A stretch of DNA of 64,000 bases from Thermoplasmatales archaeon SW_10_69_26 (GTDB taxonomy: Archaea; Thermoplasmatota; SW-10-69-26). The translations under genes were made by a program, and so were the position numbers. Shown piece by piece: positions 9,886-42,353 of the stretch. The notes below the pieces were generated by a model, which was given only the letters and a program-made list of their open reading frames with translations, did no database searches and was not told the origin of the DNA. How positions within the stretch are numbered: position 1 is the first letter of the stretch; every line of letters starts with the position of its first letter. The stretch lies in the NCBI GenBank assembly GCA_003009755.1, contig PXUB01000030.1, positions 36,638 to 100,637 on the forward strand, read 5' to 3'.

Positions 9886-10106
9886 GCGTGCAATGACGCC
9901 CCGTGATTTGAAGCCTCGTCCGTTCGACGGACGGTCGCAGCAGCGGTCAGAGTCGCAGGTTATCGGCGTGAGGGGGTCGGCCCTAGTGGGGGCGAGCTGA
10001 ACCGTGGGGCTCCTTGCCTCCCGAGAGTCAACCCTCCTGGCCATCCTGGGAACAACGTATTCATGGGTGGAGCCTATGAATCAACGCCCTGCGAGGCCGA
10101 TGAAGC

Positions 10107-11003
10107 ATGGCCAACTTCCGTATCCTTAGGGAGCGCCTACGGATTGACCATACTGGCCCCCGAGAACGGTCGTTGCAAATTCAGTATGAAATCCAGAACA
10201 CTAGTGACGAACACGAAGAGGAAGTTTTCCTCATTCTTGATGAGTATCTGCCAGGGTTGCAGGTGACGACGGGTTCCGGGAAGGAGCTAGCATATCTCCC
10301 GGATGAAATGGTCGAGGATCGTGTCGGCGATCAAGAGGAATTTATTCGAGATGCCGTGGGCGAGGACATCTTCGAAGAGGGGGATTTCGAAGATGCGAGA
10401 ATCCTGCTAGTCGAGCTTGAGGATCCTCTCCCTCCAAACGAAGTCTTTGTCTTGAAACTCAACCACTTGGATGCCGTATCACCGCCTCAGGGCAGAGGAT
10501 TGATTCGACAACCGCGATTTGAAGTGAGCGAAGCAAAGGGTCACGAAGGCCACGATACTTTCATCGAAATCCGGGGGCCGGATAGGAGTTTGATTTCTCC
10601 AGATCAGGAACAAGGCGACCCTGATTTCACTGCCCTAGATGGCTACCTACAAGCAAAGGCAGAAGGAGGGGCGGGGTTGGTCAGCTTCCAATACGAGGTT
10701 CGACCAAGGGCTGCAGAGAAGGTTTTGGTCCGTTCTTTCTTCTTGGCTCTGACTCTGTTGCCTGTTATCGTTCTTACCGCTGCCGGGGTCTTCCAGGGCG
10801 GCCCCTGGAAATTCACTCTCCTGGGGGAGCAGATGGGGATTTTCTCCCCTCAGCAACGGTTGAGGGAGACATTGGGTGCAGTTGGCTTGACCGGAACCAT
10901 TGCGCTGATGGGGTTGACTCGGCCCCGTTGGGTCCAGCGGCTATACTTCCTCCTGCCGCTTGTCCTTTATCTAGCGCTCATCCTCTGGCGGTTTTCCCCA
11001 TGA
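10107..11003 (+). CDS. Lower-GC hypothetical protein: soluble N-terminal domain plus about 3 C-terminal TM helices
   Basis: 298-aa ORF with visibly more A/T-ending codons than its neighbours. Confidence 0.7.
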   Translation: MANFRILRERLRIDHTGPRERSLQIQYEIQNTSDEHEEEVFLILDEYLPGLQVTTGSGKELAYLPDEMVEDRVGDQEEFIRDAVGEDIFEEGDFEDARILLVELEDPLPPNEVFVLKLNHLDAVSPPQGRGLIRQPRFEVSEAKGHEGHDTFIEIRGPDRSLISPDQEQGDPDFTALDGYLQAKAEGGAGLVSFQYEVRPRAAEKVLVRSFFLALTLLPVIVLTAAGVFQGGPWKFTLLGEQMGIFSPQQRLRETLGAVGLTGTIALMGLTRPRWVQRLYFLLPLVLYLALILWRFSP

Positions 11004-11040
11004 GTAAGGTTTATGTTTCAAGCTCCCCCATCTAGTGCCT

Positions 11041-11124
11041 GTGTCTGGAAGTGACGACCGGGAAAAGGCGCTGGAATCCACGGTAGTTCTCCGGACGCCC
11101 AAGACGCAGGAGCAGGCAGATTAA
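11041..11124 (+). CDS. Possible 27-aa microprotein (MSGSDDREKALESTVVLRTPKTQEQAD)
   Basis: GTG...TAA ORF with TTTATG box at 11010-11015. Confidence 0.3.
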   Translation: MSGSDDREKALESTVVLRTPKTQEQAD

Positions 11125-11163
11125 CCGTCAAGCCTGATTTCTTGGCGGTAACGATTCGACGTT

Positions 11164-12207
11164 AGTGCTTCTCGGGGTGTCTCAGTAACCCCCTCTACGC
11201 CGCTGCCCCCAACTGCCCCGATCGTTTGAGCCGCTCGTTCGGCCGCGGCAGCATCTCCACAATGCCTCGCAACGCTTTGTTGAGGGCCCGCCCGAGGAAC
11301 GGGCGGTGGTTGAAGCGGAATGTGAACGCGTCCAAGTACGGCTGCACGTTCCAGTCCTCCACGTAGGCGTGCACCCTATACAGCACGCGTTTGAGGTTGC
11401 TGAACACCGTGTGACTCCACGGCAGCACATCGTGCATCTGCTCGCCCTCCTCGCGATCGGGCTGGCGAACCTCGCGCTCGTAGGCCGCAAGCCCGTTGTA
11501 GCCGTCCCCGTTGTCCGTCCACTAACATCGAGCCTTCCTGCACGCGGACTCGCACGGTGGGGGCCAGGTTCTCGCCGCCGGCGCCGGGCACGCATTGCAG
11601 GTGCAGGTTGCCGGCTTCCTCGTCCTTGTTGTCGACGAGGGCGACCACGCACTGCTTGCTGGTGCCCCGGCCTGAGGAATCGTCCGGGCGCTTGCCGCCC
11701 ACGTAGGTTTCATCGGCTTCCCCCACGCCGTCTAACGATCGCTGCTGGGCGCGTCTCAGGATGCGGTAGATCTTCTGGCGGATGTTGTGCGCGGTCTCCG
11801 CGTGCACGCCCAACGTGCGGGCGAGCTCGGGCTCCGTGATGCCCTTCTTGGTTTTGATGACGTGGTAGATGGCCAGGAACCAGGTCTGTAGGTCGAGTTT
11901 GGTGTCCTGGAGGATCGTGCCCGCGGTCACGCTGGTTTGCTTGCGGCACGCGTAGCACTCGAACACGTGGCGGGTCTGGATGAGGCCCCAGGGCTCGTCC
12001 TCGCCGCAATCCGGGCACGTGAAGCCGTCCTTGCCCCAGCGGTGCTCGCGGAGGTATTGCCAGCAGTCCTCCTCGGTGGGGTGTGTGTTGACGAATTCGG
12101 TCAGGCTGGGCAACGCGTCATCGGTCATGCTCCCGAAGATGGGCGATGGAGGGGTGTGGGTTCAGTCCGGGGTGGCTCGGTACCACTGACACAGGCCGAG
12201 AAGCACT
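11164..12207 (-). mobile_element. IS1595-family insertion sequence (1044 bp) with 23-bp imperfect TIRs and 9-bp target duplication
   Basis: Left agtgcttctcggggtgtctcagt versus reverse complement of right end agtgcttctcggcctgtgtcagt; ttcgacgtt repeated at 11155-11163 and 12208-12216. Confidence 0.9.
11195..12128 (-). pseudogene. IS1595 DDE transposase, frameshifted near 11521
   Basis: Zn ribbon CPDC..CYAC and EADETYVGG; after a one-base shift, WTDNGDGYNGL...FSNLK...YLDAFTFRFNHR. Confidence 0.88.
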
Positions 12208-12327: not shown

Positions 12328-12400
12328 GCGGGTGTAGTATAGTCTGGTAGTACACGGCCTTGCCATGGCCGTTGCGCGTGTTCAAATCACGCCACCCGCA
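12328..12400 (+). tRNA. tRNA-Gly (anticodon GCC), no encoded CCA, no intron
   Basis: Acceptor GCGGGTG/CACCCGC, anticodon arm cggcc-tt GCC at-ggccg, T loop TTCAAAT; ATATAT box at 12302-12307. Confidence 0.96.
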
Positions 12401-16980: not shown

Positions 16981-18924
16981 TCAGGCGAGCTCGTCGAAGC
17001 CGATCTCGCCCTCGATGTAGGATGCCAGGTTCCCAGCCAGCGCGTCCACCGGCACCCGGACCTGCTCGGTCGAGTCCCGGTCGCGCACCGTGACCTCGCC
17101 CTCCTCGAGCGTCTCGTGGTCCACGGTCACGCACACCGGCGTGCCCGCCTCGTCCATGCGAGCATACCGGCGCCCGATCGAGCCGCCCTCGTCGTAGTTG
17201 GTGACCAGGCCCGCCCGCTTGAGCTCGGTCTCAATCTCGCGGGCGCGCTCGGGCAGCCCGTCCTTGCTGACGAGCGGGAACACGCCCACGTCCAAGGGGG
17301 ACAGCTCGCGCGGCAGGGACAGCGTGTCCACGTCGCCGGTCGTGTCCCAGTTGTGCTCGAGCACCGCGTACAGGATCCGGTCGACGCCGTAGGAGGGCTC
17401 GATGACGTGCGGGAACACCCACTCGCCCTCCTGGCGATCGGTCTCCTCGACGAGCTCGTAGGCCTCGGCGGGCACCTCGATGTCCTCGCCGTCGACCTCG
17501 ACCGTGACGGCCTGGCTGGGGTCCACGCCGTCGGCATCGCGCTTGCGCAGCGCCTCGGCCACGGTGCCGGCCTGGCCCTTGAACTCGGGGCCGAGCAGGC
17601 TCATGTCCGGTTCCAGCCGGGAGATCTCGCGCTCGATCGCCTCCTCGAAGCGGCGGAACACCTTCATCCGCTCGCCGCTCTCCCGCTCGTGGCTTTCGAG
17701 GTCGTAGCAGCCGCGGTCGGCGATGCCGACGCACTCGACCCAGCCGTACCGAGCGGACGCGAACTCGGCGTCCCAGCAATCCGTCGCGTAGTGTGCCATC
17801 TCGTCGGACTCGTGCTGGCGGAACCGCAGCCGCTCGCGGTCGACGCCGGCGTCGGTGAGCACCTGCTGGGTGCGACCGACGAAGTAGGCCACCATCTCGT
17901 TCGCGATCGTGCCCGCCTCGACGGCCTCCGCCAGCGTCGTCGTCACCGGCTCGCCCTCGGCCGGCACGAGATCGACCTCCAGGCCCGCCACGTGGTCGAA
18001 GTCGTCGTGGGTCTTGTCGTCGGGATCCACGAACACCTCGGCCTCGGCCTGCCAGAACTCCCGCAGACGGACCAGACCCTGGCGGGGCGAGATCTCGTTC
18101 CGGTAGGCCCGACCGATCTGGACGGCGCCGAAGGGCACCTGCTCGCGAGCGTACCGGTACAACCACTGCGAGTTGACGAACAGGCCCTGGGCGGTCTCGG
18201 GCCGCAGGAAGCCGCTGTCGCCGTCGCCGGGCCCGATCCGGGTGCTGAACATCAGGTTGAACGGGCCCACCTCGGCCGTGCCGGGGGACACGGTCTCCTC
18301 GCAGCCCAGGCAGGTCAACCGCTCGTCGAGAACGATCTCGCCGGCGGCGTCCTCCACGCGGATCCCGCCGGGGCGGACGCCGATCTCGTGGTCGTCGGCC
18401 TGCCAGGTAAGCTGCTGGGTGCCCTCGTCGAACTGCGGGTGTTCGCCGCTGAGCAGGGCCTCGATGTCCTCGGGGCCCGGTTCACGCTCGGCGGCCTCGA
18501 TGATCGAGTGCACCTTCCGGTGCACCTCCTCGTAGAGCTTGGTCCACCCGTGCTCGTCGGCGACGGGCTCGAGCTGCTCGACGACGCGCATCCACTCCTC
18601 CTCGAGGTAGTGGTCGCCGCGGAAGGCCGTCCCGCACGACAGGCACTCGACGAGGGTGTCGTCGAACTGGTCGAGGTGGCCGCTGGCTTCGAACACGGCC
18701 TCGGGGGCGACGGTCGGGGTGGAGACCTCGCCGAAGCCCTCCTCGACGACGTAGTACTGCCGCCAGAGATCCTCGAAGTTGCGCTTGAGGCCCTGGCCGA
18801 GGGGACCGTAGTCGTAGAGGCCGGCGACGCCTCCGTACAGGTCGTAGGCGGGCTTGAGGAAGCCGCGCCGCTTCAGCATCGCCATCAGCTCGACGGTCTC
18901 CTCGGGTGGGTCCTCGTCGGCCAT
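16981..18924 (-). CDS. glyS: Glycine--tRNA ligase, archaeal/eukaryotic homodimeric type
   Basis: YDYGPLG, LRPETAQG, RNEISPRQGLVRLREF, EPSYGVDR and SIGRRYARMDE motifs. Confidence 0.97.
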   Translation of the reverse strand: MADEDPPEETVELMAMLKRRGFLKPAYDLYGGVAGLYDYGPLGQGLKRNFEDLWRQYYVVEEGFGEVSTPTVAPEAVFEASGHLDQFDDTLVECLSCGTAFRGDHYLEEEWMRVVEQLEPVADEHGWTKLYEEVHRKVHSIIEAAEREPGPEDIEALLSGEHPQFDEGTQQLTWQADDHEIGVRPGGIRVEDAAGEIVLDERLTCLGCEETVSPGTAEVGPFNLMFSTRIGPGDGDSGFLRPETAQGLFVNSQWLYRYAREQVPFGAVQIGRAYRNEISPRQGLVRLREFWQAEAEVFVDPDDKTHDDFDHVAGLEVDLVPAEGEPVTTTLAEAVEAGTIANEMVAYFVGRTQQVLTDAGVDRERLRFRQHESDEMAHYATDCWDAEFASARYGWVECVGIADRGCYDLESHERESGERMKVFRRFEEAIEREISRLEPDMSLLGPEFKGQAGTVAEALRKRDADGVDPSQAVTVEVDGEDIEVPAEAYELVEETDRQEGEWVFPHVIEPSYGVDRILYAVLEHNWDTTGDVDTLSLPRELSPLDVGVFPLVSKDGLPERAREIETELKRAGLVTNYDEGGSIGRRYARMDEAGTPVCVTVDHETLEEGEVTVRDRDSTEQVRVPVDALAGNLASYIEGEIGFDELA

Positions 18925-19088
18925 CGAAGGCGCGATGCGACCGCTTGGAAAAAGGGTTGCGTCCTCGGCGGGGGGACAAGTGATGGATGGGGGCCGGGCG
19001 GGCCACAGGGGTGGTCGGTCGTCGAACCAGGGGTGAGTGGGCTGGGGGCCCGGCGCCCGACCCCGGGGATGAGCGGGAAGCGGGCGCC

Positions 19089-25500: not shown

Positions 25501-25647
25501 GCCGTCGGCAACCGGACGCCCCGTCAAGAGGTTACCGGAGCTTCGACGTGCCCGTCGACGGCGACCGCGCCGACACGGGCCCGGCGACGGTAGCTCTGCG
25601 CGAGGATTCAACCGCGCCTAAGATCGGTAACACTGGGGCCTAGGCCG

Positions 25648-25740
25648 CTGGCGAGGGGGGTTTCTTTCTTCGCGACCGTTTTTCTTTGTCCCCCTCGCCA
25701 GGCGAGAAGGCCCCGTAGAAAGAAAGAGGGTCGAAGAGAG
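25648..25740 (+). repeat. Dispersed structured intergenic repeat (pseudoknot-capable), copy 1
   Basis: Stem ctggcgaggggg/ccccctcgccag; loop cgaccgtttttcttt complementary to downstream aaagaaagagggtcg. Confidence 0.8.
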
Positions 25741-26088
25741 GAAGAACGAGCGGACGAGGGGGCGAGGATCCGATGAAGAGGTGTTGCCGAGGTGTTGCCG
25801 AACCCACACACGCCCGGCCTCGTCCGCTTCACGCCCAACGTCCCCGCGGGCCCATATCAATCGTCTCGTGAAGCCGTATTCGCGTCGTCGAACAGGCGTT
25901 GGTCGGGCCTGTCAGGCGATGTGGCGGGTCGCCTGCGGGTCGGCGGCACGCGTACCCGACGGCTGCCCCGTCGAGGCGGACAGAGGGAGCTCGCGGGCGG
26001 GGCCGGCTCCCTCAGCGCGTGGGTCCGACGGACTGACGGGTCCCGTGAAAGATAAGCCTCTTATCAACCGGCACCGGTAGTTGGCCTG

Positions 26089-30787: not shown

Positions 30788-33097
30788 ATGGAGGTTCTCT
30801 CGCGCGACGAGCTCTCCCGCGAACGAGAGAACGAGCTCCGTTCAGCGGGGGCCACCGTGGACGCGACCGGGCGCTGGCTGCGCGTGCCCGAATCCACGCC
30901 CGACACGGTGGATCGACCGGTGATCGAGCTGGCGGCCTCGGACTTCCACACCACGGCCTACGTTCCAGAGGAGGCGCTCGACGACGTGAGCGACGTCCTC
31001 GAGGACAGCCGCTGGCGGGAGACCGACGACCCCGAGGTCTTCCAAGCCGGCGTCTACCGTCTCAGTCGCGGGCACAGGGCCCTCCGCGACACCGGGGTCC
31101 CGGTCTTCTGGCGGCGTGGCGACACGCGCGAGGAGCTGTCCTTCGAGCTGCGGCACTTCCAGGAGCGCGCCGGCGGCGACGTGATGGTGCTCCTCGAGCG
31201 CTACGATCCCGACCACTGGCTCGTCGAGCGCGTCGTCTCCAACGCCAAGCAGACCTGGTACCGCGAGGAGGGCCTGCTCATGGTGGGCCCGCCCGCCTAC
31301 AACAAGACGATCGCCGAGCTCGCCGCGCGCGGCGCCAGCTGCGTCTACGAGCCCGATCTCGTCGACCGCGCCGAGGGCGAGGGCGTCGACACCGACACCG
31401 ACGTCAAGCTCCGCGTCGCCAAGGACATGGTCGCCAACCCCTGCCGCTTCCGCATCATCGAGGGATCGATGACGATGGCCAAGGGCCTGGCCGACCGTCT
31501 GAACGAGGTCGGCGAACGCGAGGAGGACCAGTGGCTGGTCCCCCGCGAGGAGGCCGTCCCCCTCGTCGACGATCTGCGCGAGCGCGGCATCGAGATGGTG
31601 ACCCGCCGCCTGGACGGTCGACGCACCGACTACGAGCACTGGCGGCCCGACCTCCCGATGGACCGCGGCCCCGGGCGCCCGAAGGAGCGCGACCCGGTCG
31701 ATCTCGAGCTGGAGGAGCCCGTGCCGGATCTGCAGGCCCACACGGTGCTCGACGACCACCAGCGCCGCGGCGTGGCCTACATCCGCGGACGCGACTACCG
31801 CTGCGTCGTCGGCGACGAGATGGGCCTGGGCAAGACGTTGACCAGCCTCTCGGCCGCCCAGTACCTCGAGGGACCCACGCTCGTCGTCTGCCCCTCGAAC
31901 GCTCGCCCGGTCTGGCCGCGCGAGATCGAGAAGTGGATCGAGGCCGACGACCGCGTCCTCTCGCCCGGCGACGACGTCGAGGAAGCCATGGCGCAGATGC
32001 AGGGCGCGGACCCGCCCGACTACGCGATCGTCAGCTACGACGGCATGGATCGCTTCTACGACGTGATCGAGGAGACGGACTGGTCGCTGGTCATCATCGA
32101 CGAGGCCCACTACCTCCGCAACCGACGCACCAAGCGCGTCCAGCTCGCTCGGGAGCTGTTGCTCGACGTCCCACGCCGGGTCCTGTTGACCGGGACCCCG
32201 CTGATGAACGATCCCAGCGAGCTCCGGTCGCTTCTGTACTTCGTGCATCCCGACGAGTGGGAGGACGCCTCCTGGTTCCGCCGCCGGTTCAAGAAGCCCT
32301 GGGAGCGCGGCACGCCCGAGGTCCGCGAACAGGTCGTCGAGCGCCTGCACGAGTACCTCGACGACGTCATGGTCCGCCGCGTCAAGTCCGACATCTTCCG
32401 CCAGCTGCCCGACAAGGCCACCCACGTCCACCAGGTCGACCTCACGCCCGGCTGGCGGCGCGAGTACCGCGAGGAGGAGCAACAGTACGCCGAGGAGCAC
32501 GAGGCCAGCTCCGACGCGCTGGGGTCCCTACAGCGCCTCAACCGGCTTCGACAGCTCGCCGTCAACGGCAAGCTCGAGGACGTCATCCCGCACATCGAGC
32601 GCCTGCTCGCCAAGGACGAGAAGGTCGTCGTGTTCGGGTTCTTCCTCTCCGGGCTCCGCACCCTCGAGGAGGCCTTCGACGACCGCGAGCCCGCTTGGCT
32701 CACCGGCAGCTCGTCCGACAAGCAGCGCAAGCAGGCCGTCCAGCGGTTCCAATCCGACCCCGACTGCCAGCTGTTCCTCGGCCAGATCAACGCCGCCGGG
32801 CAGGCGATCACGCTCACCGCCGCCCGCCACGTCGTGTTCCTCGACCTCGTGTGGAATCCCAGCGTGATGCGCCAAGCGATGGACCGCGTGCACCGCCGCG
32901 GCCAGGAGGACAGCGTGCACGTGCACTTCTTCGTGACCGAGGACACGATCGAGGAGGACATCCGGACCGTGCTCGAGGAGAAGGCCCGGCTCGTGGACGC
33001 CGTCGTCGACGACGCCGCGTTCCGCGACATGGACGCCGTCCACTGGGAGATCACCGAGCGCCTGCTCGACCGCCGCGGCGACGATCAGGGCGAGTGA
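30788..33097 (+). CDS. SNF2/SWI2-family ATPase (SMARCAL1/HARP-like)
   Basis: DEMGLGKT, DEAH, LTGTP and WNPS..QAMDRVHRRGQ motifs. Confidence 0.92.
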   Translation: MEVLSRDELSRERENELRSAGATVDATGRWLRVPESTPDTVDRPVIELAASDFHTTAYVPEEALDDVSDVLEDSRWRETDDPEVFQAGVYRLSRGHRALRDTGVPVFWRRGDTREELSFELRHFQERAGGDVMVLLERYDPDHWLVERVVSNAKQTWYREEGLLMVGPPAYNKTIAELAARGASCVYEPDLVDRAEGEGVDTDTDVKLRVAKDMVANPCRFRIIEGSMTMAKGLADRLNEVGEREEDQWLVPREEAVPLVDDLRERGIEMVTRRLDGRRTDYEHWRPDLPMDRGPGRPKERDPVDLELEEPVPDLQAHTVLDDHQRRGVAYIRGRDYRCVVGDEMGLGKTLTSLSAAQYLEGPTLVVCPSNARPVWPREIEKWIEADDRVLSPGDDVEEAMAQMQGADPPDYAIVSYDGMDRFYDVIEETDWSLVIIDEAHYLRNRRTKRVQLARELLLDVPRRVLLTGTPLMNDPSELRSLLYFVHPDEWEDASWFRRRFKKPWERGTPEVREQVVERLHEYLDDVMVRRVKSDIFRQLPDKATHVHQVDLTPGWRREYREEEQQYAEEHEASSDALGSLQRLNRLRQLAVNGKLEDVIPHIERLLAKDEKVVVFGFFLSGLRTLEEAFDDREPAWLTGSSSDKQRKQAVQRFQSDPDCQLFLGQINAAGQAITLTAARHVVFLDLVWNPSVMRQAMDRVHRRGQEDSVHVHFFVTEDTIEEDIRTVLEEKARLVDAVVDDAAFRDMDAVHWEITERLLDRRGDDQGE

Positions 33098-34302
33098 AGC
33101 TCGCGCACCACGTGCGCGACCTCCCAATCGGTGCCGCCCTCGTCGAGGCTGGCCTGCCCCTCGTAGGTGCCGGTCACGAGGTCCCCGTCGGCCAGCTCGC
33201 TCGTCCACGACAGCTCGACGCCTCCACCGTAGACGCCGGCCACCGAGGACTCGATCACCGTCGCGGCCGGGCTGGCGAGCTGGACGTCCAGGCTGCCGGG
33301 CCCGGTCGTCGCCATCGGTCCGGCGGGCCGAGCCACCAGGCCCGCCTGCACCGGTGCCTGCGCCTGCTCGAAGGTCCACGAGACGTCCTCACCGGACGAG
33401 ACCGTGTTCCACGAGCCCTGGGTCGTCTCGGTCGGGACGACGTCCAGGGGCGCCTGCGGCGGGTTGGACGCGTTGACGGGACGGACCGCGATCGAGCTCG
33501 CGGCCACGCCGGTCGTCTCCCCGCCAGGTGTGACGAGCACGGTGTAGGTCCCCGCGGCGTCGGCACCGACGGGCCGGCTGACGACGCCCGAGCGCGGTTC
33601 CAGCTGCTCGCGCTCGCCCGAGGGGCCCCACACGTTCACCGCGCCGAGCGAGGCACCCTCGGCCGCCTCGAGGGCGAACCCGCCGCTGGTCTCCGTGACC
33701 GGGACCGCCGTCGGGACGCCGGCGAGGGTGGCATCGCCGTGAGCCGTGATCGTGGCCTCGAGCGTGTACTCCTGCTCGGGGCTCTCGCCGCTGGTGTCCG
33801 CCTGCACGAGGGCGACGACGGACCCAACGTTGCCCGTGCGAGCCAGCGAGGCCTCCATCCAGATCGTGTCCTGCTCGAAGCTCTTCACGTAGTGGGTATC
33901 GTAGACCTCGACGTTCTCGAACAGCCACTCCCCGTTGAGTTGGGTCGTCTCACCGCTGTACTCGATCGTGACGTTCACGGTGACGGGGACGCCGGTCGGG
34001 ACCTCGGGGGTGAGATCGTGCTCGCGCGTGTCCGCTCCGCGCAGGCTGCCGCCGGCGAAGGCGCCATCCCCGGTCGTGAACGTGCCCGTCTGGGAGATCC
34101 TGGCCGTCTGCGAGGGCGCCTCGAACGCCAACCGGGCCTCGGCGCTGGCGTTGGCTGCCTCCCGCTGTGTGGGATCGTCGGCCTCCGCCTGCGTCTGATC
34201 CAACGCCTCCTCGTCGCCGCCCACGCCCAGGCATCCCGCCGCCAGCGCCACCAGTGCCAAGGCGGCCGCGAGCCCGAGCCGCCGCGCTCGCCATCCTCCC
34301 AT
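33085..34302 (-). CDS. Hypothetical lipoprotein
   Basis: RR-containing signal with LAAGC lipobox; beta-rich acidic body. Confidence 0.75.
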   Translation of the reverse strand: MGGWRARRLGLAAALALVALAAGCLGVGGDEEALDQTQAEADDPTQREAANASAEARLAFEAPSQTARISQTGTFTTGDGAFAGGSLRGADTREHDLTPEVPTGVPVTVNVTIEYSGETTQLNGEWLFENVEVYDTHYVKSFEQDTIWMEASLARTGNVGSVVALVQADTSGESPEQEYTLEATITAHGDATLAGVPTAVPVTETSGGFALEAAEGASLGAVNVWGPSGEREQLEPRSGVVSRPVGADAAGTYTVLVTPGGETTGVAASSIAVRPVNASNPPQAPLDVVPTETTQGSWNTVSSGEDVSWTFEQAQAPVQAGLVARPAGPMATTGPGSLDVQLASPAATVIESSVAGVYGGGVELSWTSELADGDLVTGTYEGQASLDEGGTDWEVAHVVRELHSP

Positions 34303-34375
34303 GAGAAACGATGACGCGCCAGCGTCTGGTTAAGCGTTGGGGGTGCCGGGGGCCCGGCTGTCTCGTTAAGCGGGG

Positions 34376-34493
34376 CCGCGAAGGACACGAAGGATCGCCA
34401 AGGCCACGAAGGGCCTGTGTACTCGCCGCCGGGCGGCTCTGTCACGGCAGCTGCTCTACTTTGTGCCCTGGCGTCCCCTCGCGTACTTGGTGG
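34376..34493. repeat. Gene-less inverted pair of tandem CRCSAAG-like 9-mer arrays
   Basis: ccgcgaag-gacacgaag-gatcgccaag-gccacgaag faces inverted ccaccaag-tacgcgagg-ggacgccagg-gcacaaag. Confidence 0.6.
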
Positions 34494-34567
34494 TCTCCCC
34501 CCGTTTCTCATCCTTACAGCGCGGCCGTGGGCTCGGCTGGCGGCCTCACGGATCGATGAGGGCGAAG

Positions 34568-35086
34568 CTACCGGCGCCGGGCGACCATCTCCTCCAGGCG
34601 GAGGACGTGGCCGTTGTTGACCTCGACGTACGTCGTCGCGTACACGCCGGCGTCGATCTCGTCCTTGGGGGGACGGGCGACCTCGAGGACATCGCGGCCC
34701 TCCAGCCGATCCTCGGTCGTCAGCGCCTCGAAGTCCCCCTCGGCGCCGATCGGCTCGGTGTCGTGCTCGGGCAGGTCCTCGCGAGCGGCCGGCTGATCGG
34801 GGCCCGGGGCCGGCTCCTCCTCGTCCTCGAGGTGGTCGGGATGCCCACCCATGAGCAGCACGACCTCCACGACGAGCAGGATCACCAGCACGACGAGCCC
34901 GCCGATCGCGATCTGGCCGACGGTGAGGCTCTCGTGGATCGAGCTGGGGTCCAAGATCCGTGCCCCGAACAGCAGGACGATCACGATCGTGGCGACCGCG
35001 ACCACGGGGATCGCGACGAGCCACCAGTTGAACCCCTGGCCGGATCCGGTCGCCTCGTCGGCGTCGGCGTTGCCGTCTTCGGCCAT
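34568..35086 (-). CDS. Hypothetical 2-TM membrane protein
   Basis: Two hydrophobic helices and an acidic C-terminal domain. Confidence 0.75.
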   Translation of the reverse strand: MAEDGNADADEATGSGQGFNWWLVAIPVVAVATIVIVLLFGARILDPSSIHESLTVGQIAIGGLVVLVILLVVEVVLLMGGHPDHLEDEEEPAPGPDQPAAREDLPEHDTEPIGAEGDFEALTTEDRLEGRDVLEVARPPKDEIDAGVYATTYVEVNNGHVLRLEEMVARRR

Positions 35087-35115
35087 GATGGGAGACTCCT
35101 TGAGACCTGGTGAAT

Positions 35116-35466
35116 TCAGGAGGCTTCTTTAGCCCTTTCGGTGCCGGACGAGGGACCCGATCGGCCCGTCGAGCCCGACAAACCGCAGGAAGGGCACTCG
35201 ATCGTATCCCCCCGACGAGGGGGATCGAACACGCTGTCACATCGGGGGCAACGGACCAGCTCGGGGTTGACCTCCCCGGTCTCGAAGTCGGCGTCCGGCC
35301 ACGCGTAGAGCAGGGCCAGGCCGACCAGGCACACCGCCTCGACGGCGATCGCCACCCACAGCAGGGTCGCCTCCTGCCAGATCCAGAAGGTCACGATCGC
35401 GCCGAGGAACGCGGCCACGGCTGCAGCCGTCAAGACCCCACCCAGCAGGCGTTCGTCGAGATCCAC
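35116..35466 (-). CDS. 2-TM protein with C-terminal zinc ribbon
   Basis: CPRC...CPSC after two TM helices. Confidence 0.75.
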   Translation of the reverse strand: MDLDERLLGGVLTAAAVAAFLGAIVTFWIWQEATLLWVAIAVEAVCLVGLALLYAWPDADFETGEVNPELVRCPRCDSVFDPPRRGDTIECPSCGLSGSTGRSGPSSGTERAKEAS

Positions 35467-35478
35467 GTGCGTCCACCT

Positions 35479-38400
35479 TCACGTCCAACGGCGGTTCAGG
35501 CCGAGCACGCCGAGCGCGACGGCCGTCGCCGTCAGGACCGTGAGCAGGGTCCATTCGGGGATGAAGTTGTCGCCTTCGACCTCGTCCCCCTGGACGGAGA
35601 ACGCGTGCGCCGAGTCCGCCGTTTTCGGTCCCTCGTCGGTGACCGCGGAGAGGCTGATCTCGTAGTCGCCGCGCTCCTCGGGCGCCTGGAAGGTGCCCTC
35701 CCAGCTGGATCCGCCGACGTTCTCGAGCTCGACCCGCTGGACGACCTCGCCACCCGAGGTGATGTTCGCCCAGGCGCGGCGGACGTTGCCGTCGATCTGC
35801 ACCCGGAACGTCGTCTCCTGGTTCGGCGAGAGCACGTCCTGGCCGTCCTCCTCGCGCGTGTCCTGCAGCTCGGGCGAGGAGAACGTCTCGCCGAGGTTGC
35901 GGACGGTCACGTTGACCTCGTCCGCGGCGAAGTTCTGCCCGTCGAGCACGAACACCTGCAGCGTGACGTCGCCGTTCGGCAGCGCGGTCGTGTCCAGGCG
36001 GTAGGAGCCGCGGTTCGGGATGTCCTGCGCCTCGGGGATCTCCTGGAACGTTCCGCCCGGCTGCTTGTAGAACAGGCTGATCCGCAGCTCGTCGGTGGGC
36101 GTCTCGGCGTCCGTCGCCGTCCAGGCAGCCTGCGTGGTCCCGGTGATCGTGTCGCCCTCCGCCGGACGGTCGAACGCCACGCTCGGCACGCTGTCGCCGG
36201 CGGTGAAGTTCTTCTCCGTGCTCGAGCGCACGTTGCCGAAGATGTCGGTCGCCTCGACGGTGAAGCGGACCGTGGCGCCCTCCTGGAAGGCCTGGTCGGT
36301 GCGCTGGTTGAACAGACGCACGCTCCACGTGCCGTCCTCCTCCTCGAGCGCCAGGGTCTGATCGGGGCCGTCGTCGACGTTGTAGACGGCCTCGACCTTC
36401 TGCACCTCGGCGTCCTCGGTCACGTTCGCGAACACGACCTCGCGCGGCTTGCCGGGCTCGGCGAACACCTCGATCGAGGGGCCCAGCTGGTCGAACAGGA
36501 CCGGCTGCTGCCGCTCGTCGCCGGTGTTGCCGACGGCGTCCTCGGCGACGACCGAGATCTGGTAGACGCCGTGCCCGTCGACGACCTCGTCGAACTCCTG
36601 CAGGCGCAGGGTCCCCTCGCCGCCGGCGAGCGTGATCGTCTGGCTGGCGCCCGAGTCGGCGTGCGTGACGGTGACCTCCGTCTGACCGGCTCCGGAGGCG
36701 CCGTCGGTGACCGAGACGTCGATGTCGGTCGGGAGACCGATGACTTGTCGGTCGCCGCGCTGGATGGCCGGCCCCATCTCCAGCTCGGCCGAGGGCCCCT
36801 CGGCGTCGACCTGGAACTGGTGACGGAGGGTGTCGCTCTCCTGCGGCGGCTCGGAGACGTCGGCCGCCTCCAGCGTCACGTCGACGGTCGACCCCGACGC
36901 GAAGCTCTCGGGAGGGTCGTACTTGACGCGGTAGCAGTCCTCGCAATCGTCGATCGGCGAGATCTCGGCCTCGTCGGTCACGTCCTCGCCGTTGACGCCG
37001 AAGCTGATCGAGCTCTTGTTGACGCCTTGACCGAAGTCGACGACGTCGGCCCGGATCGTCGGTTCGGCCGGTCCATAGGTGCCCTCGGCCGGTCCGCGGA
37101 CGTCGGGCGAGAACTTCTGGGCCTGCGGCGGCAGGTTGTCCTTGACCTGCAACTCGCCGGCGGCGGTCGACTGCTTGCCGGTGTAGTCCTCGACGGTCAC
37201 GTCGTAGGTCCAGGTGCCGACGTCGACCTCGGTGGCGTTCACGGGGCCGTAGACCCAGCGATCCTGGGTCTCGTTGTAGGTCATGTCCAGCGCGCCGGTC
37301 GCCCCGGAGGTGGGTCGGTCGATGCGGAGCGTCGGCGGCTGCACGGCCGTGTCGTCGGAGACGTCGGCCACCCACGTGATGGGTCCGCCGACCTCCTGGG
37401 TGCCGTTCGGGATCGTGCGGAAGTCCACGATCGTCGGTGCTTGGGTGTCGTTGACGGCGACGGAGACGTCTTGGCCGCGTGTCACCTGGTCGGCGAAGTC
37501 GGTGACGGCCAGGCGAACCGTGTACGTGCCGCCGCGGTCGAAGAACTCGGCGTCCGGACCGACCGCGACGTTGGCCTCGTAGGTGCCGTTGCGGGTCGTC
37601 TGATCGTCGATCTGGTCGACCGGCAAGGGAGCGTCGACGAACTCGTCGGCGCCGGGCTTGCGGATCTCGAGGCTCACGTTCTCGACGCGGAGGGCATCGC
37701 GCGCGTCGGCGCGGGCCGTCACCTCGTCGCCGGGGTCGACGGCGGTGGGACTGACGCTTGCGTTCGAGAGCAGCGGCTCCGTGTTACCGTTCTCGTTCAC
37801 GCGATCGGCGATCTCGCCGACCCGGCCCTCGGTCGTGTTGCGTCCGAAGTTGTCGCTCACGTGGTAGTCGACGTCGAACTCGCCGACCCAGTCGAGGTCC
37901 AGGTCCTGGTCGGAGCTGTTGGCGTAGTACCACTGCCAGCTCTCCGTCTTGGTCTCGGTCTCGTCGCCTTCGGTGTCGCACCCACCGCCGGTGCGTTGGT
38001 CGGTGCCGGTCGCCGTGTCGACCCGGCAGTGCTCGATCATCTCGACGTCGAGCCAGGCGGCCGTCGTCCCGTTCGGGCGGACGACCTCGACGCTCGTGTT
38101 CTCGGCGACGGCCTCGTCCGAGAGCTCGGTGCCGTTGATCGACGCGGTGATGTTGAACCGGTTGTCGGGCTCGTCGGCGGAGCCGCGGTACCGGGGCGGG
38201 TCGGAGCCGAAGCTCGCCTCGCCGTTGACGCGGAAGCCGTCCCCGCCGGGCGGATCGATCTCGATCTCGGTCGGCAGCGAGGTGAGATCGAACTGCATGC
38301 CGTCGGAGACCGTCGTGTGCTCGGTGTCCTCGGCGCGGACCTTGAAGACGTAGCGATCGGGATCGCCCTGGATGGTCGTCGTGACCTCCCAGATGGCGCG

Positions 38401-40506
38401 GTCGTCCTCGTTGCGCTCCATCTGGAGCTCGGAGAACTCCTCGCCGGTCGCGTTCGTGAAGTTGGCCGGGGCCCCGTCCGGCGTCTCGAAGACCGCCGTC
38501 ACGCCGTCCTCCTTGAGGGAACCGTCGGCTTCGTCCTTGCTGTTGAGGATCTCGGCTTGGAAGGTGACGTTGTTGCCCTCCTGGACCTGGGGGACCTGAC
38601 TGCTGCCGTCGTCCCCGTCGATCGAGGTGGACTCGATGTTCGGCGCGTTCTGGTCGACGAACACGAGATCCAGGCACCAGGTGTTGTCGGCGTTGTCGGG
38701 CTGCCGGCCGCACTCCTGGTGCTCGTTGAGCTCACCGATCTCGCCGGCCTCTGGGCGCGGCGTGGGCGGGGAATCGTAGTTGTCCGGGTGGTCCAGGCGG
38801 ACCATGATGCGCTGCTCGCCGCCCTCGTCGTTGGCGTTGACGACGAGCTGTTGATCCCACAGGTCCTGGGAGCCTTGCGTGGACGAGGGGATCGCGTACT
38901 CGCTGTTGTCGACGTCCTCGGCGTCGACGTCACGGTCGAAGCGCTCGATCCGTTGCCCTTGGAACCAGATGGAGGCCCGCCATCCGTTGTCGCGGAGATC
39001 CTCCTTGGCGGCGTCCGACTCCAGGAGGTTCTCGTCGCCGCTGTTCTGGAACTCGGGCTGGAGCTTGATATCCGAATCCACCGGACAGGGCTCCTCCTCC
39101 GTGCAGTCGCTCACGGTCCCGTTCCCGGTGTCGACGAAGAGGTTGTGCTCGACGAACTCGAGGTCGACGCCGCGGAGCTGCAGGGACCGCTGACCGGCGT
39201 TGTTGTTCTCGTTGGATTCGGGGATGGCGCCCTCGCCGTCGAGGTCCTCGTCGGCGATGGCCTTCAGGAAGAACTGGCCGGCGCGCTTGAGGCGGTCGAA
39301 GGCGGTGACCTGCGTGGAGGTTTGGGTGCTGGGTTGGATGACCTCCTCGCTGTCCTTGTCGTAGATGCCGGCGTCGGTCCGGTTGGCGTAGATCGTGGTT
39401 TGGCTGGTGTCGAGGGGTTCGCCGTCTTGTTCGGCGCGGGTCTCGGTGTGGAGGTTGGTCTCCAGGGGAGCGCCGAAGCGGTAGGAACAGGGGTATTCGG
39501 TGTCGGGGTCGTCAGTCCGTTGGATCCACTGGCAAGTGGGTCCATCGGAGGATCCGGTGTACTTGTAGGTGTCGTAGGTGCGCGTGTCCCGCTCATCGGG
39601 CTCGTAGTCGCTGTCGTCGCTGTCGAAGCTGGATCGGTTGGCGAACTCGCCGTCGTCCCGGGCACCGTTGGGGTTCCAGTTGGGGTAGCTGCCCTCGTTG
39701 GTGATCCCGATATCGAATTTGGCGGAGTCGTCGCCGGTGTAGGAGGTGCGGCGGTCGTCCTTGTCGGTCACCCAGTTCACGTCGTTGTTGTCGACGAGCA
39801 GGTCGGGGCGTTGGTCGACGACGATGACGCGTTCGGCCGCGATGCAGGCTGCACCGCCGGCCCCGCAGTTGTCGAGGTTGCCGAACCCGCTGTCTGTCGT
39901 GTCGCCCTCGTTGTTGGTGTCGGCGTCGATGTCGAAGACGAGGAACCGGACGCGGTGTTCGCCGGGGTTGTCTTGGACGCCGTCGACGCTGATCGTATCC
40001 GAGAGGCTGATACTCGCGGTGCACTTCTGGCTCGGCTGGAGGCTGTTGGGCTTCTCCGCGGAACTGCTATCGGGGCAGTCGAGCCCGCGCGTAGGATAGT
40101 TGTGGGCCGCACCGCTGCGGTCCTGGTAGGCTTGGTCGTCCTTCAGGTCGTGGTCGCCGTGCAGGTATTGGATCTGCAATCGCAGCTCGTCGCTATCAAC
40201 GGACGAGTAGCCCTGGCAACTGTTGTCGTCGGCCAGCCGGTTCTCGACCGTGACGTCGAACTGGATGTCCACGCCGGGCTTGGCGAAGACCGCTTGCTCG
40301 CCTGTGATCTGCAGATCGTCGCCGGCTCCACCGGTGGGCACGGCCTCGATGTCGGTGATCCACAATGGGTTCTCAGCGTGGTCGCAATCACCCACCAGCC
40401 CCTCCTGGGCCTGGGCATCCTCGTCGGACATGGTGACGAGGGGGACGAGGAGGCTGAGGGCAGCGACGAGGACGAGCGCGCGGCGGGCGTTGATGACGCG
40501 AGACAC
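35479..40506 (-). CDS. 1675-aa cell-surface protein (CARDB/Ig-like repeats) with IPEW-TM-RR C-terminal anchor
   Basis: Signal peptide, IPESNENNN CARDB-like motif, repeated A.D..GN Ig-like strands, FIPEWTLLTVLTATAVALGVLGLNRR. Confidence 0.85.
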   Translation of the reverse strand: MSRVINARRALVLVAALSLLVPLVTMSDEDAQAQEGLVGDCDHAENPLWITDIEAVPTGGAGDDLQITGEQAVFAKPGVDIQFDVTVENRLADDNSCQGYSSVDSDELRLQIQYLHGDHDLKDDQAYQDRSGAAHNYPTRGLDCPDSSSAEKPNSLQPSQKCTASISLSDTISVDGVQDNPGEHRVRFLVFDIDADTNNEGDTTDSGFGNLDNCGAGGAACIAAERVIVVDQRPDLLVDNNDVNWVTDKDDRRTSYTGDDSAKFDIGITNEGSYPNWNPNGARDDGEFANRSSFDSDDSDYEPDERDTRTYDTYKYTGSSDGPTCQWIQRTDDPDTEYPCSYRFGAPLETNLHTETRAEQDGEPLDTSQTTIYANRTDAGIYDKDSEEVIQPSTQTSTQVTAFDRLKRAGQFFLKAIADEDLDGEGAIPESNENNNAGQRSLQLRGVDLEFVEHNLFVDTGNGTVSDCTEEEPCPVDSDIKLQPEFQNSGDENLLESDAAKEDLRDNGWRASIWFQGQRIERFDRDVDAEDVDNSEYAIPSSTQGSQDLWDQQLVVNANDEGGEQRIMVRLDHPDNYDSPPTPRPEAGEIGELNEHQECGRQPDNADNTWCLDLVFVDQNAPNIESTSIDGDDGSSQVPQVQEGNNVTFQAEILNSKDEADGSLKEDGVTAVFETPDGAPANFTNATGEEFSELQMERNEDDRAIWEVTTTIQGDPDRYVFKVRAEDTEHTTVSDGMQFDLTSLPTEIEIDPPGGDGFRVNGEASFGSDPPRYRGSADEPDNRFNITASINGTELSDEAVAENTSVEVVRPNGTTAAWLDVEMIEHCRVDTATGTDQRTGGGCDTEGDETETKTESWQWYYANSSDQDLDLDWVGEFDVDYHVSDNFGRNTTEGRVGEIADRVNENGNTEPLLSNASVSPTAVDPGDEVTARADARDALRVENVSLEIRKPGADEFVDAPLPVDQIDDQTTRNGTYEANVAVGPDAEFFDRGGTYTVRLAVTDFADQVTRGQDVSVAVNDTQAPTIVDFRTIPNGTQEVGGPITWVADVSDDTAVQPPTLRIDRPTSGATGALDMTYNETQDRWVYGPVNATEVDVGTWTYDVTVEDYTGKQSTAAGELQVKDNLPPQAQKFSPDVRGPAEGTYGPAEPTIRADVVDFGQGVNKSSISFGVNGEDVTDEAEISPIDDCEDCYRVKYDPPESFASGSTVDVTLEAADVSEPPQESDTLRHQFQVDAEGPSAELEMGPAIQRGDRQVIGLPTDIDVSVTDGASGAGQTEVTVTHADSGASQTITLAGGEGTLRLQEFDEVVDGHGVYQISVVAEDAVGNTGDERQQPVLFDQLGPSIEVFAEPGKPREVVFANVTEDAEVQKVEAVYNVDDGPDQTLALEEEDGTWSVRLFNQRTDQAFQEGATVRFTVEATDIFGNVRSSTEKNFTAGDSVPSVAFDRPAEGDTITGTTQAAWTATDAETPTDELRISLFYKQPGGTFQEIPEAQDIPNRGSYRLDTTALPNGDVTLQVFVLDGQNFAADEVNVTVRNLGETFSSPELQDTREEDGQDVLSPNQETTFRVQIDGNVRRAWANITSGGEVVQRVELENVGGSSWEGTFQAPEERGDYEISLSAVTDEGPKTADSAHAFSVQGDEVEGDNFIPEWTLLTVLTATAVALGVLGLNRRWT

Positions 40507-40634
40507 GGTTCCACCTGCGAAGGGAGGGCAACCGCCACGCCCGACGGGAGGCGCTTAAAGGTTGCCCTGCCCGATAGGCAGACCGGTGATGCTTGAACGT
40601 TTCGGTACGCGCCCTGTCCAGTCGGACGGTCGCT

Positions 40635-40693: not shown

Positions 40694-41341
40694 CTAGCCA
40701 CCGAAGTCGCCCTTGCTGCCTTCCATGCCGAAGGAGAAGTGCTCGGTGTAGGGGCCGACGAGATCGTCCTCGATCTGGATGCCGCTGACGGTTCCCGAGG
40801 ACAGGTAGACGACGGCGAACGTCGCCCCGCCGGGCACGGGGGTGTCGCAGTCGTCCTTGCTCTCCTGGCCTTCGCCGGCGTCCACGTCGCCCTTCAGGTC
40901 GTAGGCGGGGCCCGGGCCGTAGAACGCCACGCGGTAGTTGTGATCCCGCGGCTGCAGGATCGGGATGCCGACGAAGTTCTCACGGTCCTCGACCGGGTCG
41001 AGGCGTTCGATGCAGAAGCTCTCCACGTCGGCCGCCGTCTTGCAGGGAAGGTCGACGACGTAGGCGTCCTGGCCGTTCGTCCAGTCCTGCAGCGAGATCC
41101 CCCCGATCGTCGCCGGGGCGAAGCCCTGGTCGAACAGCTGCAGGTACAGGGTCTGGCTGGCGCGGATGTTCTGGTTCACGCCGGGGTGGGACGCGGCGAC
41201 GTACCCGCGGTCGAAGAACTCCATCTCCTTCTCGCAGGGGCCCACATCGTGGTCGGCGGCGGCCGGCGTCGCAGGCAGCGTGACGGCGACGAGCGCGAGC
41301 GCCAGCAGCGCCGTCACGGCACGGTTCGTGATCGTGGTCAT
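40694..41341 (-). CDS. Hypothetical secreted protein
   Basis: Signal peptide ending PAAA; GGAGG RBS; four Cys. Confidence 0.75.
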   Translation of the reverse strand: MTTITNRAVTALLALALVAVTLPATPAAADHDVGPCEKEMEFFDRGYVAASHPGVNQNIRASQTLYLQLFDQGFAPATIGGISLQDWTNGQDAYVVDLPCKTAADVESFCIERLDPVEDRENFVGIPILQPRDHNYRVAFYGPGPAYDLKGDVDAGEGQESKDDCDTPVPGGATFAVVYLSSGTVSGIQIEDDLVGPYTEHFSFGMEGSKGDFGG

Positions 41342-41435
41342 CGGTCGTCAGCCTCCGTGTAGGGTGAGGTGTCGGCGGGGGGCATCATCAGCACGGGGTC
41401 GTCACCGAGACGGGGTGAACCGGTGCAGACCACGC

Positions 41436-42353
41436 TCATCCTTGGCCCTCCATGATCGAGGTACCCAGCAGCCGGTTGACGCGTTGCTCGAACGGTCCGG
41501 AGCCGGGCATCTCGGGGGATTGCCCGATGCCGAGCGGGAGACCGATGCCCTCGCCGGCGCAGTACAGCACGTCGCTGGGGCCACCGATCCACTCATCCAA
41601 GTGGAACGGCTGATCGGGCTGCTGCTGGATCTGCTTGTTGTCGCGGAGGATGAACTGCTCGCCTTCGCCTTCGGCGATCTCGACCTCCGTGGTGATCTTG
41701 GCTTCCTCGCCCGTGAGGCCCGTCGCGGCTTGCGGGTACACAGCGACGATGTAGGAGTCGTCGGGGGCCAGATCGATGCTCATCTGGGTCGAGCCTCCGG
41801 CGCCGGCGGCTCGCTGGGTCTGTGATGCCTTCTGCAGGATGCGGAACGCGTAGCCCAGGCCCTCGCCCTGTTCGGGGTACAGGTCCTCGACGAGGTGCTG
41901 GGGGCAGTTCGGCGTCATCCCGGTCCCGTCCTCCTGGACGCGGAACACGTCCATCGCGGCGACGACCGGGCCCTCGACGGTCACGGTGACCTCGTAGGGG
42001 AGGTCGCCCACGGAGGTCCCGGGCGTGATGGATAGCCAGGTGATCTTCTCCTCTCGCTCCGTGTCGGCGCCGTTGAGGGCAAGGCCCGCCGGCACGGTGG
42101 GGACGTCGTCGTTGCCGGTCTCCTCGCGGAGGGAATCGTCCTCTCCCCAGTAGCCTTGATCCACGTAAGCGTCGTCTTCGACGACGATCTCGTCCCTGTA
42201 GGGGATGTCCGAGGTGATCTCGTGGTTCGGGTTGTCGTCACCTTCGGTGTGGAATTCGTCACCGTCGTCCCGGGCTGTCGATGCCGTGTGGGCGAGCGCA
42301 GGCGTCATCCCGACGAGCAGGACGACGGCGACGCCCAACGTTGCAAGCCTCAC
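41436..42353 (-). CDS. Hypothetical secreted protein
   Basis: Signal peptide ending ALA; GAGGTGA RBS and TTTAAG box upstream. Confidence 0.75.
   Translation of the reverse strand: MRLATLGVAVVLLVGMTPALAHTASTARDDGDEFHTEGDDNPNHEITSDIPYRDEIVVEDDAYVDQGYWGEDDSLREETGNDDVPTVPAGLALNGADTEREEKITWLSITPGTSVGDLPYEVTVTVEGPVVAAMDVFRVQEDGTGMTPNCPQHLVEDLYPEQGEGLGYAFRILQKASQTQRAAGAGGSTQMSIDLAPDDSYIVAVYPQAATGLTGEEAKITTEVEIAEGEGEQFILRDNKQIQQQPDQPFHLDEWIGGPSDVLYCAGEGIGLPLGIGQSPEMPGSGPFEQRVNRLLGTSIMEGQG

Follow-up and report, generated by a model that had tools for sequence, protein, structure and literature searches.

A dispersed repeat occupies three loci in a 64,000-nt stretch of contig PXUB01000030.1 (the window; + and - denote its strands). 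Copy A lies in a 560-nt gap between two divergent genes, a GNAT gene and egtB. Copy B lies between a divergent gene for a small membrane protein and a gcvT-gcvH-gcvP1-gcvP2 operon, and copy C, a short fragment, has an M50/CBS protease gene upstream. At all three loci, the repeat is on the same strand as the next gene. A sequence-only reading of the window had described a repeat of about 90 nt, with three copies in 64 kb, that preserves a pseudoknot-like fold by compensatory change. This observation was confirmed overall and in place (Table 1). The homologous unit, however, proved to be about 150 nt long: blastn-short aligned 25584-25732 of copy A with 57723-57873 of copy B over 151 nt, at 69.5% identity (E 3e-18). 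The three loci are real, but the material consists of two full copies and one relic. Copy C, reported as a 3'-half copy, is a genuine but decayed fragment of 37 nt with 78% identity to A (E 4e-4), and its blastn-short matches are limited to 37-39 nt (E 4e-4 and 4e-3). It keeps the conserved linker and an interrupted purine tract, without the pyrimidine tracts and without stem 1; the upstream part of the unit is common to A and B only.

The cores that had been described as shared were found to be exact. The 13-mer core occurs in the window exactly twice at 0 mismatches, once in A and once in B, while its remaining matches, with 2-3 mismatches, are at chance level (25 found versus 21.6 expected). 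The 3' core pattern has three matches at up to 3 mismatches versus 0.03 expected, and none of 100 shuffles reached three. We built a covariance model from A and B and searched the entire window with it, its filters turned off. Apart from the two copies (scores in Table 1), the model gave 26 and 20 bits on their own reverse strands and 12.8 bits for the next-best match, and copy C was not recovered. No further copies were found in the window by mismatch searches, blastn-short, a listing of purine and pyrimidine tracts, or the covariance model; tracts at 10.2-10.7 kb and at 20.17 kb were ruled out as copies, being coding sequence. With a G+C content of about 70% in the window, the element's T-rich and A-rich tracts stand out, and four of the seven T-rich pyrimidine tracts of at least 8 nt on the + strand of the window belong to A and B. 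We found no open reading frame (ORF) common to the copies. Terminal inverted repeats are absent, as an inverted-repeat scan of both loci lists the internal helices alone; the unit ends are complementary over 4 bp at most, and no flanking direct repeat is visible. Membership in the MITEs, which carry terminal inverted repeats and a target-site duplication, was rejected for A and B, where neither was seen.

Nested helices, a pseudoknot and a candidate triple helix

Both full copies form a stem 1 (S1) that, as had been reported, differs in sequence and yet pairs perfectly over 12 bp in A and 13 bp in B. Folding of longer sequences brought out a helix absent from the sequence-only reading: the segment it had taken for "loop 3" (AGGCCCC) pairs with an upstream GGGGCCT, forming an 8-bp helix, P1, that encloses S1. 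On the A/B alignment, the nested pairs number 29 (4 bp in P0, 4 bp in Pa, 8 bp in P1 and 13 columns in S1), and 57 of 57 cells are paired across A and B. Seven of these pairs have changed on both sides: five in S1, one in Pa and one in P0. The count for S1, whose changes are G-C to C-G flips, rises to six with another indel placement. Two further pairs changed on one side, each from G-U to G-C. When the partners were slid by 1-3 columns, 42-58% of the cells were paired and 1-4 pairs had changed on both sides, and the shuffle control reached the observed values in 4 of 500 cases; with a two-row alignment, both controls are coarse. The substitutions cluster in the stems as complementary pairs. 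By contrast, conservation is seen in the unpaired junctions, which comprise the 13-nt core, the nucleotides following S1 and the first part of the purine tract, and the 13-nt and 9-nt junction blocks are unchanged. These data bear out the earlier view that selection favors single-strand pairing over sequence. Because RNAalifold selected P0 and Pa and both are short, we regard S1, P1 and the pseudoknot helix S2, described below, as the only solid ones. The folding energy of copy B is better than that of A, with z scores of -3.7 and -2.4. Downstream of the element at copy A only, the segment 25755-25767 contains exact complements of 8 nt and 7 nt to the stem 1 3' strand and could form an alternative hairpin; it is without a counterpart at copy B.

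The pyrimidine loop of S1 pairs with the downstream purine tract, as had been described for both copies, with the G-G mismatch followed by GACC/GGTC. The resulting helix S2 is 15 nt long in A and 16 nt long in B. One and the same G-G mismatch occurs in both, A has one G-U pair as well, and the distal GACC/GGTC is common to A and B. Counted from the distal end, one pair of S2 has changed on both sides and one on one side, and the helix of B is longer by two pairs. The claim that the fold is kept by compensatory change thus holds chiefly for stem 1 (5-6 pairs) and less for S2, with its single double-sided change and 2-bp extension. In both copies, the 5' strand of S2 ends 0-2 nt before the 3' strand of S1, the layout usually seen where the stems of an H-type pseudoknot stack coaxially. 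The loop lengths (13-14 nt, 0-2 nt and 17 nt) fit this type as well, and we found its order of stem 1, loop 1, stem 2 and loop 3, with stem 2 (15-16 bp) abutting stem 1 (12-13 bp). The pairings of S1, P1 and S2 and the compensatory changes are observed in both full copies. S2 and the triplex were counted by script, as MAFFT did not place a one-base indel before the purine tract.

The loop of S1 also contains a first pyrimidine tract, Y1. Loop 1 of an H-type pseudoknot occupies the major groove of stem 2, running in parallel with the 3' strand of that stem. We scored Y1 against the purine strand by Hoogsteen rules (T over A, C over G) in a register anchored at the S1/S2 junction and found 10 of 11 parallel matches in A and 10 of 11 in B, in the same register, as a measure of sequence compatibility only. 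This feature, too, is absent from the sequence-only reading. Crossed with the purine tract of the other copy, Y1 matched at 7 of 11 positions, and three positions have changed on both strands with the match kept. Shuffles reached the observed parallel match in 340 of 20,000 cases for A and in 251 of 20,000 for B, where the best-register score was used; with a longer target, the counts were 1,650 and 262 of 20,000. Strict antiparallel Watson-Crick pairing of Y1 gave 11 matches in A (reached by 463 of 20,000 shuffles) and 8 in B (16,356 of 20,000). Because the latter is at chance, the parallel relation is the one common to both copies. It allows nine consecutive triples in A, one of them over a G-U pair, and three plus six in B. 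The match has the geometry of a major-groove triple helix, and a triplex may thus form.

Two features argue for the + strand. Copy A has three G-U pairs (in S2, P1 and Pa), each of which would turn into an A-C mismatch if the - strand were read; the argument is modest, since by chance all three would favor one named strand in 1 of 8 cases. In addition, a pyrimidine-motif triplex is possible only on the + strand.

Table 1. Positions in the window of the copies, their helices and tracts, and promoter matches
Feature	Position	Strand	Details
Copy A, full unit	25584-25745	+	blastn-short alignment to B; covariance model 181 bits
Copy A, conserved 5' part	25594-25625	+	holds two weak candidate helices, P0 5' strand and Pa
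Copy A, P0	25594-25597 with 25735-25738	+	4 bp, weak candidate
Copy A, Pa (small hairpin)	25605-25608 with 25622-25625	+	4 bp, weak candidate
Copy A, P1	25634-25641 with 25708-25715	+	7 Watson-Crick and 1 U-G; -15.6 kcal/mol
Copy A, stem 1 (S1)	25648-25659 with 25690-25701	+	12 bp, all Watson-Crick; 30-nt loop; -24.8 kcal/mol
Copy A, first pyrimidine tract Y1 (loop 1), proposed Hoogsteen third strand	25661-25671	+	parallel match to 25719-25729, 10/11
Copy A, S2 5' strand (conserved core and second pyrimidine tract Y2)	25673-25687	+	duplex -17.1 kcal/mol
Copy A, S2 3' strand (purine tract, mismatch G, then GGTCG)	25719-25733	+	
Copy B, full unit	57723-57885	+	blastn-short alignment to A; covariance model 174 bits
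Copy B, conserved 5' part	57733-57764	+	same candidate helices as A
Copy B, P0	57733-57736 with 57875-57878	+	4 bp, weak candidate
Copy B, Pa	57744-57747 with 57761-57764	+	4 bp, weak candidate
Copy B, P1	57773-57780 with 57848-57855	+	8 Watson-Crick; -16.5 kcal/mol
Copy B, stem 1 (S1)	57787-57799 with 57829-57841	+	13 bp; 29-nt loop; -26.9 kcal/mol
Copy B, Y1, proposed third strand	57800-57810	+	parallel match to 57859-57869, 10/11, fixed register
Copy B, S2 5' strand	57813-57828	+	16 nt, 94% complementary; duplex -21.1 kcal/mol
Copy B, S2 3' strand	57858-57873	+	
Copy C, decayed 3' fragment	2419-2455	+	3' core pattern, blastn-short
gcvT promoter match	57881-57890	+	score 6.2, at -30; start 57916
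egtB promoter match	26054-26063	+	score 6.1, at -30; start 26089
Promoter match of the gene after copy C	2558-2567	+	start 2597
Promoter-motif examples	42478-42487; 18944-18953 (-); 57881-57890; 26054-26063		

Host, neighboring genes and known families

Searches with GcvT and glycyl-tRNA synthetase (GlyRS) bore on the host, whose archaeal nature is absent from the sequence-only reading. The labelled matches name Thermoplasmatota or Thermoplasmata archaea only. The nearest NCBI-sourced proteins are 59-60% identical (GcvT and GlyRS), and closer relatives (98%, 78-82% and 65-72%) come from metagenome sources only. The host is most likely a Thermoplasmatota-like archaeon. A motif search in 31 upstream windows yielded a BRE/TATA-like 10-mer, roughly AAC-G/C-C-TTT-W-A, and 13 of the 15 sites scoring at least 5.8 are centered 28-34 nt before a start codon. 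This position, about 30 nt before the starts, implies that mRNAs would be mostly leaderless, the archaeal pattern. As chance background, 68 sites in 128 kb (both strands) score at least 5 on the promoter matrix, or about 0.16 per 300 positions. Runs of at least four T are rare in the window (14 on the + strand and 12 on the - strand), and several of them are TATA boxes. Scans for sigma-70 promoters and intrinsic terminators were uninformative, being the wrong model for an archaeon.

Copy B ends 2-7 nt before the promoter-like site of gcvT and 43 nt before the gcvT start, whereas copy A is about 350 nt from egtB and about 320 nt before its promoter; the EgtB assignment is an NCBIfam equivalog match of 362.7 bits versus a cutoff of 360. 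Because gcvT and egtB have promoters of their own at -30, the copies are predicted to lie upstream of the promoters of these neighbors and not inside their mRNAs. The element is probably not a leader or riboswitch of gcvT and egtB. A "new glycine riboswitch" in particular is unlikely because the host is archaeal and gcvT has a promoter at -30.

Several observations concern the surroundings of the copies. The gcvT frame is open upstream through all of copy B (57445-58974), giving a 500-amino acid ORF from the ATG at 57472; with this open frame, gene callers could wrongly extend gcvT across the element. The 310-nt gap between copy A and egtB holds no convincing ORF, and within this non-coding stretch an 11-nt unit is repeated twice in tandem (25777-25801). 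The gene after copy C (2597-3077) has an apparent frameshift at a G run near 2640, which is either a sequencing error or a real break: a signal-peptide-like start lies in one frame and the gene continues in another, with high third-position G+C. Farther away, a low-G+C island (10080-12000; 59% versus about 70%) contains a fragment of an ISXO2/IS1595-type transposase (11198-11521, -) and adjoins tRNA-Gly(GCC) at 12328-12400; it is probably DNA acquired at a tRNA. This tRNA-Gly, GlyRS (16984-18924, -) and the glycine-cleavage operon (57916-62250) lie within 50 kb, which may be coincidence. Last, a 1,691-amino acid protein (35482-40554, -) and several of its neighbors (33088-35478 and 40697-42359) have no Pfam match at E 1e-5.

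We then compared the element with known families. Of the Rfam 15 covariance models, run over the whole window, nothing exceeded its gathering threshold except a tRNA; around A and B the best matches were microRNA or small RNA models, at 12-19 bits versus thresholds of 40-98. Neither the glycine riboswitch model RF00504 nor the HgcC, HEARO and IS605-orfB RNA models gave a match at E up to 10. A strict 3' core pattern, which is too strict for diverged relatives, found no homologue in 185,579 species genomes, a collection that does not include the genome of the window; the 13 loci that it returned are from unrelated taxa and were discarded as chance, since none of them has the 13-nt core or the pyrimidine tracts. 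By blastn, matches in plasmid and phage collections were either absent or short and at chance level, and a literature search found no description of the motif. Archaeal H/ACA RNAs carry an ACA box after the lower stem and a K-turn or K-loop, and C/D RNAs carry boxes C (RUGAUGA) and D (CUGA). Both types of guide RNA were rejected: the bases after P1 are UAG, UUG and AUAG, stem 1 is fully paired, and the unit has no C/D boxes. Origin-recognition-box and sigma-54 readings were set aside by eye, as the boxes are absent or not common to A and B.

The sequence-only reading had offered an unnamed noncoding RNA, a ribozyme-like motif or an element mobilized as single-stranded DNA, and had pointed to nuclease, transposase or reverse transcriptase genes as possible neighbors. 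Its view of pairing selection and of an unnamed noncoding RNA stands as the best reading, since no Rfam family matches. Nothing was found that points to a ribozyme, and no copy lies next to a nuclease, transposase or reverse transcriptase gene among the selected ORFs that were scanned. The sole transposase trace is the IS1595-type fragment, about 14 kb away.

Interpretation and rival explanations

The element is real, structure-constrained and so far unnamed, and an RNA module is what it most likely represents. More fully, we propose, with a confidence a little short of even, that it belongs to an unnamed family of structured RNA modules of about 150 nt, read from the + strand in an uncultured Thermoplasmatota-like archaeon. 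In such an RNA, the outer helix P1 (8 bp) and the inner, G+C-rich S1 (12-13 bp) would form a long hairpin with a loop of 29-30 nt. The 3' half of this loop (core and Y2) would pair with the purine tract just after P1 to give the H-type helix S2 of 15-16 bp, separated from the abutting S1 by only 0-2 nt. The 5' half (Y1) would follow the purine strand of S2 in parallel through the major groove, with 6-9 consecutive U.A-U and C+.G-C triples. P1 may pack beside S1, so that all three helices could coexist: by a geometric argument, not a computed one, the 6 x 6-nt internal loop would turn back and bring the 3' end of P1 to the S1/S2 junction. The module might act as a free-standing, very stable fold, for example as a protein-binding scaffold or a degradation-resistant end. 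Possibly, it is instead the RNA component of a mobile repeat of the non-autonomous kind; it probably does not serve the neighboring genes as a metabolite-sensing leader. We infer transcription, its strand, triplex formation and function from two sequences. A more specific version, in which a natural archaeal RNA has a pseudoknot holding a long intramolecular pyrimidine-motif triplex (6-9 consecutive U.A-U and C+.G-C triples) and serves as a stability or protein-scaffold module, possibly aided by a salty cytoplasm, appears rather doubtful.

Several findings weigh against the proposed RNA family. Its evidence comes from only two full copies, too few for valid covariation statistics, and few states are open to the shuffle control. 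Within S2, a single pair shows a double-sided change, and P1 has none, being invariant save for one one-sided U-G to C-G change. P0 and Pa, of 4 bp each, are choices of RNAalifold, a program that rewards covariation, and the folding energy of copy A is unremarkable (z -0.05 and -0.37). The purine tracts are near-symmetric, and the distinction between parallel and antiparallel matches rests mainly on copy B. Upstream of the unit, there is no good promoter match on the + strand, the best being 3.6 in A and none reaching 3.5 in B. Furthermore, Y2 of copy A contains a run of five T, and archaeal RNA polymerases tend to terminate at oligo-T. On the promoter matrix, the core and Y2 reach 5.1 in A, and to the eye the A arm looks like the promoter of GlyRS. 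The purine arm, read in reverse, reaches 3.8 in A and 4.5 in B. Because of these promoter-like scores and the rarity of T runs, the arms of S2 could be DNA signals. Last, the decay of copy C and the presence of three loci within 64 kb would suit a proliferating repeat no less than a functional gene family.

The copies may instead belong to a non-autonomous repeat that moves as single-stranded DNA, either REP/RAYT-like or derived from IS200/IS605 like the PATEs, with the hairpins recognized by a transposase and any RNA perhaps resembling a guide-RNA scaffold. This is unlikely in our view, although three loci in unrelated contexts, one of them a truncated relic, would fit it, as would the lack of terminal inverted repeats, described also for PATEs. 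PATEs are described as often encoding guide RNAs (PMC10055086), and the guide RNA of TnpB as combining a pseudoknot with a triple helix (PMC10097598). However, the scanned ORFs contain no TnpA, TnpB or RAYT domain, the left boundaries of A and B have no 4-5-nt motif in common, and the folds lack the 8-bp hairpin with a UUCA tetraloop known from such RNAs (PMC4615843); the HgcC, HEARO and IS605-orfB searches were negative. Moreover, conservation and compensation span the whole unit and not just its ends, and the copies are far from near-identical. Quite unlikely is a DNA-level intergenic cassette, in which the T- and A-rich tracts would be TATA/BRE-like promoters or oligo-T terminators on both strands and the inverted repeats protein sites, a cruciform or H-DNA. 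The promoter-like scores of the two arms speak for it, with starts predicted 2-3 nt inside stem 1 from the reverse purine arm, and so do the scarce T runs, several of which are TATA boxes; the divergent upstream genes are also without a good promoter match nearer their starts, and the intergenic repeats of a halovirus are described as carrying promoters (PMC8707807). Yet scores of 4.5-5 are expected by chance at the background given above, the two promoter-like arms face each other, and nothing at the DNA level would explain inverted repeats that interleave at a spacing compatible with a pseudoknot. A protein site should be conserved in sequence across copies, whereas stem 1 flips 5-6 pairs and stays complementary. 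For H-DNA, a mirror repeat of 9-11 nt is short.

A cis-regulatory, riboswitch-like leader of gcvTHP and egtB is improbable. The common orientation with the next gene and the conserved junctions and covarying stems, typical of aptamers, would suit it, and copy B occupies the classic position of the glycine riboswitch in bacteria. Against this stand the promoter matches of gcvT and egtB, placed as for leaderless mRNAs, the distance of copy A from egtB and the absence of a match to the glycine or any other riboswitch model. Helices of 12-16 bp would be very stable for a switch, and glycine cleavage, ergothioneine synthesis and a small secreted protein are without an obvious common ligand. It is very improbable that the copies are a neutral segmental duplicate with accidental complementarity. 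Only two copies are available, G+C-rich DNA folds well by chance, and shuffles of A fold as well as A does; nevertheless, every nested cell pairs, the seven double-sided changes exceed the 1-4 of the slid controls, and substitutions come as complementary pairs in the stems with the junction blocks intact.

Comparison with known systems

The telomerase RNA core is an H-type pseudoknot with a major-groove triple helix. This core and the SAM-II, SAM-V and preQ1-II riboswitches have the same order of parts as the element: stem 1, a pyrimidine-rich loop 1 and stem 2 (PMC7583470 for the riboswitches). As in these triplex pseudoknots, the U-A-rich end of stem 2 abuts stem 1 and loop 1 would run parallel to the purine strand. 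Riboswitch triplexes are described with about two canonical U.A-U triples plus non-canonical, ligand-contacting ones (PMC7583470), whereas the sequence of the element would allow 6-9 consecutive canonical triples. In contrast to the telomerase and riboswitch pseudoknots, its stem 1 has 12-13 bp and its "loop 3" is paired upstream in P1; unlike riboswitches, it is predicted to lie outside an mRNA leader, and it has no sequence or Rfam match.

MALAT1 and the ENEs, triple-helix elements that stabilize RNAs of vertebrates, viruses and transposons, likewise clamp one downstream purine tract with two pyrimidine tracts of the same strand, and their purine tract, as in the element, is at the 3' edge of the conserved unit. 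A table in PMC7583470 lists nine U.A-U triples and one C.G-C triple for MALAT1, to which the predicted triple count of the element would be comparable. Solved natural RNA triplexes are described with six or fewer consecutive triples (PMC7102945), and the prokaryotic examples given are riboswitches, with short, ligand-contacting triplexes, and group II introns (PMC7583470, PMC13541005). ENEs, however, are stem-loops with a U-rich internal loop, whereas the element would be a pseudoknot inside a hairpin loop; the A-rich strand of an ENE is the 3' terminus or a poly(A) tail of the transcript and protects it against decay.

The guide-RNA scaffold of TnpB (omega RNA) is described as 116 nt with a pseudoknot and a triple helix (PMC10097598). 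In a halophilic archaeon, 177-194 divergent PATE copies are reported, with near-terminal palindromes and neither inverted ends nor target duplications (PMC3119063); PATEs are also described as frequent carriers of guide RNAs (PMC10055086), and haloarchaeal IS1341 and PATE RNAs as having an 8-bp stem with a UUCA tetraloop (PMC4615843). The element would resemble them in size, in combining a pseudoknot with a (here candidate) triple helix, in the pairing of its 3'-most nucleotides with the 5' region, and in its gene-less, dispersed copies, as in halophilic archaea (PMC10097598, PMC10055086, PMC3119063). Unlike them, it has no tnpB or tnpA nearby among the ORFs scanned, no UUCA hairpin and no boundary motif visible in both A and B. 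Like the glycine riboswitch RF00504, copy B is immediately upstream of a gcvT-gcvH-gcvP operon; unlike it, the element has no match to that model, an archaeal host and, at gcvT, a separate promoter at -30. A RAYT gene accompanies REP elements, imperfect palindromes of 20-40 nt whose head is conserved and which occur in many near-identical copies. By comparison, the element is about 150 nt long and its copies are 69.5% identical.

Whatever its function, the element is a candidate for a new RNA family, in a lineage related to Thermoplasmatota for which the closest proteins of NCBI origin reach only about 60% identity. The analysis also provides a usable promoter consensus for this lineage and shows that the tempting "novel glycine riboswitch" reading is probably wrong. 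If true, a triplex of MALAT1 length in a telomerase-style pseudoknot would extend the motif to the third domain of life and would offer a small natural model for triplex stability. By analogy, the element resembles the telomerase and SAM-II pseudoknots in architecture and MALAT1 in its predicted triple count, and is a member of none of these families.

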